Shown here: positions 7,254 to 7,453 of the stretch, piece by piece
How positions within the stretch are numbered: position 1 is the stretch's first letter
Layout: each line of letters starts with the position of its first letter
Assembly: GCA_000004695.1 (NCBI GenBank)
Contig: CM000155.2
Span: forward strand, 3,168,001 to 3,232,000
Source of the DNA: Dictyostelium discoideum
Lineage: Eukaryota
Reading direction: 5' to 3'
DNA: 64,000 nt
Notes under the pieces: model-generated
What the model was told of the DNA's origin: nothing
The model's database searches: none
What the model saw: the letters and a program-made list of their open reading frames with translations, nothing else
Made by a program: the position numbers and the translations under genes

Positions 7254-7453
7254 AAAATTAATTCATTGTTGTTTTATTCCAAATTGTGCACAAACATAAC
7301 TTATAAGTAAAGCTTTTTTATATATAATATTATATATATCTCTATATTATATATAATAATATATATTATATATATTATATATAATAAAGTTTTACTTATA
7401 AGTTTTGTTTGTACACAATTTGGAATAAAACAACAATGAATTAATTTTTATTT
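7254..7453. repeat. ~200-bp near-perfect palindrome (foldback): ~58-bp arms around an AT/TA-rich ~78-bp core
   Basis: Left arm aaaattaattcattgttgttttattccaaattgtgcacaaacataacttataagtaaa; right arm tttacttataagttttgtttgtacacaatttggaataaaacaacaatgaattaattttt. This is the reverse complement with 2 mismatches. Confidence 0.7.

Follow-up and report, generated by a model that had tools for sequence, protein, structure and literature searches.

A 205-bp palindrome among TRE5 relics on Dictyostelium discoideum chromosome 6, tentatively explained as a local inverted duplication

Local palindromes known from yeast, Tetrahymena and mammalian cells arise where short inverted repeats allow fold-back priming or a switch of template. 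Palindromic hairpins derived from MITEs, such as human MADE1 (the source of mir-548) and the Stowaway-type MITEs of plants, form families of hundreds to thousands of copies that show TA target-site duplications (TSDs). Palindromes with TA-rich centres are also a classic source of cloning and sequencing artefacts. In D. discoideum, the count of identified miRNA loci stood at only 27 in 2018, with some of them transposon-derived, and the dispersed thug DNA transposons account for about 0.1% of the genome. Two such elements, thug-S and thug-T, are listed as D. discoideum DNA transposons by Glockner et al. 2001, as cited in PMC5633606. The multicopy thug-S is annotated as a gene model whose intron contains a miRNA hairpin (PMC4894637, PMC12405889); this hairpin yields AUUAAUUUCGGCAGCCAUAUU and UAUGGCUGCUGAAAUUAAUGUGG, and its listed loci lie on chromosomes 2, 3 and 5. 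For its insertions, the retroelement TRE5-A prefers sites that precede tRNA genes by about 50 nt (PMC5633606).

Here we describe a palindrome in a 64-kb window (the whole stretch of DNA analysed, with ~22% G+C) of D. discoideum AX4 chromosome 6. An inverted-repeat search of the window placed it at 7249–7453 (205 bp), with two 82-nt arms and a 41-nt centre:

7249–7330, no strand assigned: left arm of the palindrome, 82 nt, 17% G+C, its outer 40 nt pairing perfectly with the right arm
7331–7371, no strand assigned: centre of the palindrome, a 41-nt TA-rich spacer that is only partly self-complementary and contains the asymmetric ATCTCTAT
7372–7453, no strand assigned: right arm of the palindrome, matching the reverse complement of the left arm except at 4 positions (two G/T-type mismatches and two T/T)

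The same search gave an arm complementarity of 95% over the 82 nt, making this the best-matched and second-longest inverted repeat of the window. In a position-by-position check, in which position i pairs with 14702-i, pairing was perfect over 7249–7288, and the four mismatches fell at 7289 (C/A), 7297 (T/T), 7312 (G/T) and 7317 (T/T). The first-pass annotation of this DNA had described a near-perfect palindrome of about 200 bp, with 58-bp arms carrying 2 mismatches around a TA-rich, itself palindromic core of about 78 bp. Position-wise pairing bears out this description, except that the left end lies at 7249 rather than 7254, giving 205 instead of 200 bp. A 35-nt core of the arms occurs twice in the window, once in each arm, with 0 occurrences expected by chance. 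As DNA, the palindrome folds at -73 kcal/mol, compared with -18.3 ± 3.1 kcal/mol for shuffled sequences (z = -17.8), and none of the 200 shuffles folded as well. A chance origin is excluded. The fold, far beyond that of the shuffles, confirms the cruciform or hairpin potential noted before: the DNA is predicted to be able to extrude a cruciform or a hairpin whose stem would measure roughly 80–100 bp, and the TA-rich centre at 7331–7371 is the likely fold-back or melting point. As RNA, the predicted energies are -98.8 kcal/mol for the + strand and -99.6 kcal/mol for the - strand (z about -22 on either strand), so that either strand, if transcribed, would give a long double-stranded RNA hairpin that Dicer-like enzymes could cut. 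No ORF of at least 20 aa overlaps 7249–7453, which confirms the lack of coding potential claimed at the outset.

An independent assembly, GCA_054883475.1, carries this locus on contig JBTAPE010000001.1, at a distance of ~35 kb from one of the contig ends. Window positions 7000–7900 are 100% identical there, palindrome included, whereas elsewhere in the locus the two assemblies differ by indels and by an extra block of ~960 bp in GCA_054883475.1. Since they are identical around the palindrome and differ elsewhere, a fault confined to one assembly does not account for the palindrome. An assembly or cloning error, for instance a chimeric fold-back read, would be a natural suspicion for a palindrome with a TA-rich centre; with the 205 bp and 900 bp around them unchanged in the second assembly, we regard such an error as extremely improbable. 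The extra ~960 bp falls near window position 14009, in the T-run/5'-module region of the full-length TRE5 element listed below, and is probably a module repeat that was collapsed or expanded in one of the assemblies.

The palindrome lies within a field of TRE5 relics between the genes for tRNA-His and tRNA-Asn, and non-LTR retroelements with reverse-transcriptase and endonuclease ORFs are found beside both tRNA genes. The main features of this field are:

5627–5698, + strand: tRNA-His, from a tRNA search
6501–7020, - strand: short TRE5-A copy (copy B), consisting of modules only, without ORFs
7810–7892, - strand: orphan TRE5-A 3' (C-module) fragment, 83 bp, heavily 5'-truncated
about 7948–8706: short TRE5-A, the third of four insertions to the right of the palindrome
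about 8720–14099: full-length TRE5 element with ORF1 and ORF2, the fourth of these insertions
14147–14221, + strand: tRNA-Asn, from a tRNA search

As first reported, the palindrome sits between copy B (6501–7020) and the orphan 3'-module fragment (about 7810–7892). Copy B is flanked by 14-bp target-site duplications, AAAAAAATGGTAAC at 6487–6500 and AAAAAAATCGTACC at 7021–7034. A lost tRNA gene to the right of copy B was considered as an explanation of its target and found no support, with no tRNA signal at E <= 1. On the right side of the palindrome, four insertions follow one another in the same orientation, namely the 7810–7892 fragment, a 29-bp remnant, the short TRE5-A and the full-length TRE5 element. 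One target sequence occurs in five copies within 7797–14112: ATCTATTAATTTT at 7797 and 7893, flanking the orphan C-module fragment (7797–7809 and 7893–7905), and AACTATTAATTTT at 7935, 8707 and 14100. The last and newest insertion point lies 47–48 bp upstream of tRNA-Asn, as expected from the known preference of TRE5-A (PMC5633606). The array is a clean natural record of TRE5 elements reusing one 13-bp target ~48 bp upstream of a tRNA gene. The ORF2 C-terminus of the full-length element (8720–14099) is only 43% identical at the protein level to that of the TRE5-A relic by tRNA-His (4665–5587), and the two have different 3' ends, with 5' modules that are ~86% alike; two TRE5 subfamilies are therefore apparently present. 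Within this relic upstream of tRNA-His, positions 5545–5587 carry a 16-bp direct repeat (TTTTTGGCCATGAATT, + strand) around 16 T plus GAA, which in sequence resembles a micro-insertion of poly(A) alone, with a target duplication that belongs to it. A 158-aa ORF at 5111–5587 (- strand) is 100% identical to DDB_G0293732 of D. discoideum AX4, and a neighbouring gene of 1641 aa contains low-complexity sequence.

The DNA directly to the right of the palindrome shares two segments with the surroundings of tRNA-His:

7453–7537, + strand: segment X, 85 bp, 81% identical to window 4594–4667
7540–7562, - strand: ORF2 tag, 23 nt (CATAGGAATTGGAATACGACGTT), a diverged piece of TRE5-A ORF2

The counterpart of segment X at 4594–4667 abuts the TRE5-A relic upstream of tRNA-His, and the core of the ORF2 tag is the 18-mer GAATTGGAATACGACGTT (7545–7562), identical to 5588–5605. 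Segment X and the 18-nt tag occur in the same order and orientation at both loci, but they are separated by a TRE5-A relic of ~920 bp at the 4594–5605 locus and by only 7 bp beside the palindrome. This relic comprises the ORF2 C-terminus and the B-module, and its DNA is 85–92% identical to relics elsewhere. The matches at both loci mean that the DNA adjacent to the palindrome went through duplication and deletion; it looks like a relic that was copied segmentally and then internally deleted. As the homology of segment X begins at most 17 bp from the right end of the palindrome, there is a rearrangement breakpoint at this position. Segment X also holds a B-box-like GTTCAAGGG. The idea that it is an inverted copy of the TRE5-A B-module was rejected: the palindrome that it predicts at 4664/4665 has only a 9-bp stem (z = -1.6).

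Neither the window nor five other Dictyostelium loci (L001, L002, L004, L006 and L014; ~105 kb), which were fetched via TRE5 proteins and are in large part rich in transposable elements, contain a second copy of the palindrome. The D. discoideum DNA sampled amounts to ~150 kb, or ~0.4% of the ~34-Mb genome, a fraction that is probably too small to reveal a family with a few dozen copies. An apparent match of an arm in L002 was discarded as low-complexity sequence only. Exact-pattern searches of prokaryote, metagenome and viral collections found no match, which says little as Dictyostelium DNA is not expected there, and the arm sequences had no match in a full-text literature search. Look-ups by exact protein of the 962-, 158- (DDB_G0293732), 143-, 171-, 324- and 85-aa ORFs and of P0005 and P0007 yielded GCA_054883475.1, a single D. 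cf. discoideum locus, Logan contigs of 1 kb and nothing else, and none of these supplied an orthologous allele that has one arm or an empty site. When 7033–7946 was compared with the TRE5 copies and ORFs of the window (blastn and blastx), nothing aligned to 7249–7453; within this query, only segment X, the ORF2 tag and the C-module fragment match TRE5 copies, their ORFs or related window DNA. BLAST with lax scoring returned only noise on this AT-rich DNA. An origin of one arm from flanking DNA or from TRE5-A was also considered and rejected, the alignment scores lying inside the range of shuffled sequences.

The scan of all mirror-image boundaries of the palindrome yielded as flanking repeats only the self-palindromic motifs AATTAATT, TTAA and TA. 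The boundaries 7264–7438 carry the 8-bp AATTAATT on each side and the boundaries 7262–7440 carry TTAA. Arm complementarity runs 7–9 nt past these candidate TSD motifs, so that a TSD is indistinguishable from an extension of the arms. This is the pattern of an extended palindrome, not of a terminal inverted repeat (TIR) plus TSD.

Three other strong palindromes were found in the window:

6281–6434: inverted repeat with 49-nt arms that are 92% complementary and a 56-nt spacer, hairpin-forming and unrelated to the main palindrome
35791–35866: spacer-less palindrome of 76 bp with 38-nt arms that are 97% complementary, 29% G+C, in non-ORF DNA
40913–41107: inverted repeat with arms of 69–77 nt that are about 90% complementary and a spacer of about 41–57 nt, of higher G+C

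Each of the three is single-copy in the sampled DNA. The four strong palindromes of the window are mutually unrelated in sequence, with 7249–7453 as the best, and the ~105 kb of other loci hold four more strong palindromes. The presence of three unrelated strong palindromes in the same 64 kb indicates that such structures are not rare here, and a general local process fits unrelated, single-copy palindromes better than one mobile family does. The 6281–6434 hairpin lies 53 bp to the left of the target duplication of the TRE5-A copy at 6501–7020 and, without that insertion, would be ~280 bp from the main palindrome. The inverted repeat at 40913–41107 adjoins an apparent coding sequence, and a CGAACTACACCCAATC-like direct repeat is found at 40860 and 41006.

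We propose, with a confidence slightly better than even, that the palindrome arose as a local inverted duplication and is present once, within non-coding DNA that transposable elements have rearranged, and that it is neither a transposable element nor a known RNA gene. The first-pass annotation had offered a replication product as one possibility and a foldback or hairpin-type element such as thug as the other. If the palindrome belonged to a foldback or MITE-like family of non-autonomous DNA transposons, thug-related or undescribed, that is moved by a transposase encoded elsewhere, this would account for a unit made up entirely of a long inverted repeat around a small unique centre, an architecture shared by foldback elements and some MITEs, and for its position within a cluster of transposable-element relics. 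The AATTAATT or TTAA flanks could then be a palindromic TSD, and the thug family does exist in this species as a multicopy source of hairpin miRNAs. However, no second copy turned up in the window or in the 105 kb of other, largely transposon-rich DNA, although the power of that search was low at ~0.4% of the genome. Complementarity that continues 7–9 nt beyond the candidate TSDs is unexpected for an insertion into an unrelated target, and the three other strong palindromes of the window share no sequence with this one. As regards thug itself, thug-S is gene-like with an intron, while the palindrome has no ORF, and the window contains neither of the thug-S miRNAs AUUAAUUUCGGCAGCCAUAUU and UAUGGCUGCUGAAAUUAAUGUGG, even when up to 3 mismatches are allowed; for the thug-S miRNAs, loci are listed on chromosomes 2, 3 and 5 only, and the palindrome lies on chromosome 6. 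The multicopy nature of thug-S, its intron-bearing gene model, its chromosomal distribution and the absence of its miRNAs leave the thug suggestion unsupported and favour a local product. Mobility as such is not refuted by a sample of ~0.4% of the genome, within which we find what had been named beforehand as the mark of a purely local duplication, namely unique occurrence, no TSD that can be told from the palindrome itself and no homologues. We consider a mobile foldback family rather unlikely.

The folding energies bring in another candidate, an unannotated hairpin-RNA locus (a young miRNA or an endogenous siRNA precursor) whose stem of at least 80 bp would be cut by DrnB or DrnA to RNAs of ~21 nt. 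At -0.48 kcal/mol per nt over 205 nt on either strand, the palindrome folds below the published energy limit for miRNA precursors (-0.2 kcal/mol per nt) and comes close to the published D. discoideum miRNA hairpins of 105–179 nt, whose energies range from -0.51 to -0.73 kcal/mol per nt and several of which have nearly perfect stems. Two of the four arm mismatches, counted as G/T, would be G-U pairs on the + strand. The antisense (C-module) promoter of copy B (TRE5-A, 6501–7020) might drive transcription by read-through; sense and antisense transcripts are known from TRE5-A, and transposable-element-derived hairpins do give miRNAs in D. discoideum. Yet none of 33 published mature miRNA sequences (Meier 2016, Table 2, and Liao 2018, Table S1; a set that leaves outside ~10 of the 27 known loci, Avesson 2012) maps on or near the palindrome, and the chromosome 6 miRNA loci in these tables lie elsewhere. 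In a search of the window with Rfam 15, only the two tRNAs reached the threshold, and nothing matched the palindrome even at E <= 1. By eye, no long T-run followed by G, the reported start motif of pri-miRNAs, was found within ~140 nt on either side. A hairpin-RNA locus, physically plausible as it is, appears unlikely to us. More specifically, the palindrome could be a newborn hairpin-RNA gene, created by inverted duplication in the tRNA-linked relic field, transcribed by TRE5-A read-through and diced to small RNAs; we hold this combined scenario to be quite doubtful. In a variant of it, the palindrome would be the first member of a foldback MITE family new to description. If it were true, the birth of a miRNA or siRNA gene would be shown in an amoebozoan, and the palindrome and the unrelated 6281–6434 hairpin would form a small cluster of hairpin precursors. 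Small RNAs mapping to the palindrome would reveal a hairpin-RNA gene arising by inverted duplication beside retrotransposons in Dictyostelium.

Returning to the local inverted duplication, which we prefer, we propose the following hypothetical multistep origin, in which (i) a replication fork or a resected double-strand break would stall at the hairpin-prone TA-rich tract that is now 7331–7371; (ii) the nascent 3' end would fold back, or switch to the complementary template; (iii) ~80 nt of adjacent sequence would be copied in reverse; and (iv) the copied end would rejoin the chromosome at or near 7453–7470, the edge of the TRE5-A-associated relic segment X. The arms would since have diverged by ~5%, or template switches from one to the other would have kept them alike. 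We propose no dedicated function for the palindrome. We infer both this absence of function and the fold-back or template-switch mechanism, the latter from the anatomy of the palindrome and from general knowledge of palindrome formation rather than from events seen at this locus. Against a local duplication it may be said that the original arm is not distinguishable from its copy, that the event itself is reconstructed, not directly seen, and that arms which differ by ~5% but still pair would be equally compatible with selection maintaining the structure. As a plain local palindrome, the structure would be a minor curiosity, one more structural mutation of AT-rich, repeat-rich intergenic DNA; at the same time, it may be a fragile site or one that forms cruciforms, and it is stable in two assemblies.

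Compared with known systems, the palindrome resembles the DrnB-dependent miRNA hairpins of D. discoideum, such as mir-1184 and mir-1185 (Liao et al. 2018), in length class (205 nt as against 105–179 nt), energy per nt, near-perfect stem and intergenic position, but differs from them in lacking a match to a published mature sequence and a recognisable upstream pri-miRNA start motif. With thug-S it shares the host species, a hairpin structure, which in thug-S yields miRNAs, and the tendency of such elements to sit near other transposable elements. In contrast to the multicopy, intron-bearing thug-S, it has no ORF and was found once, and it is set apart by the published descriptions of thug-S and its miRNAs. 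Like MADE1 and the Stowaway-type MITEs, the palindrome is a short unit made up almost wholly of two inverted termini that can form a long hairpin and possibly feed small-RNA production; these elements, however, have many copies with TA TSDs, whereas here one copy was found, with no distinguishable TSD. Known fold-back palindromes mostly extend over kilobases and are associated with gene amplification, whereas the present one measures 205 bp and lies inside a chromosome. It has in common with them near-perfect arms and a short, asymmetric, hairpin-prone centre, and, like them, it is a single-copy, non-coding structure at a rearrangement breakpoint in repeat-rich DNA.
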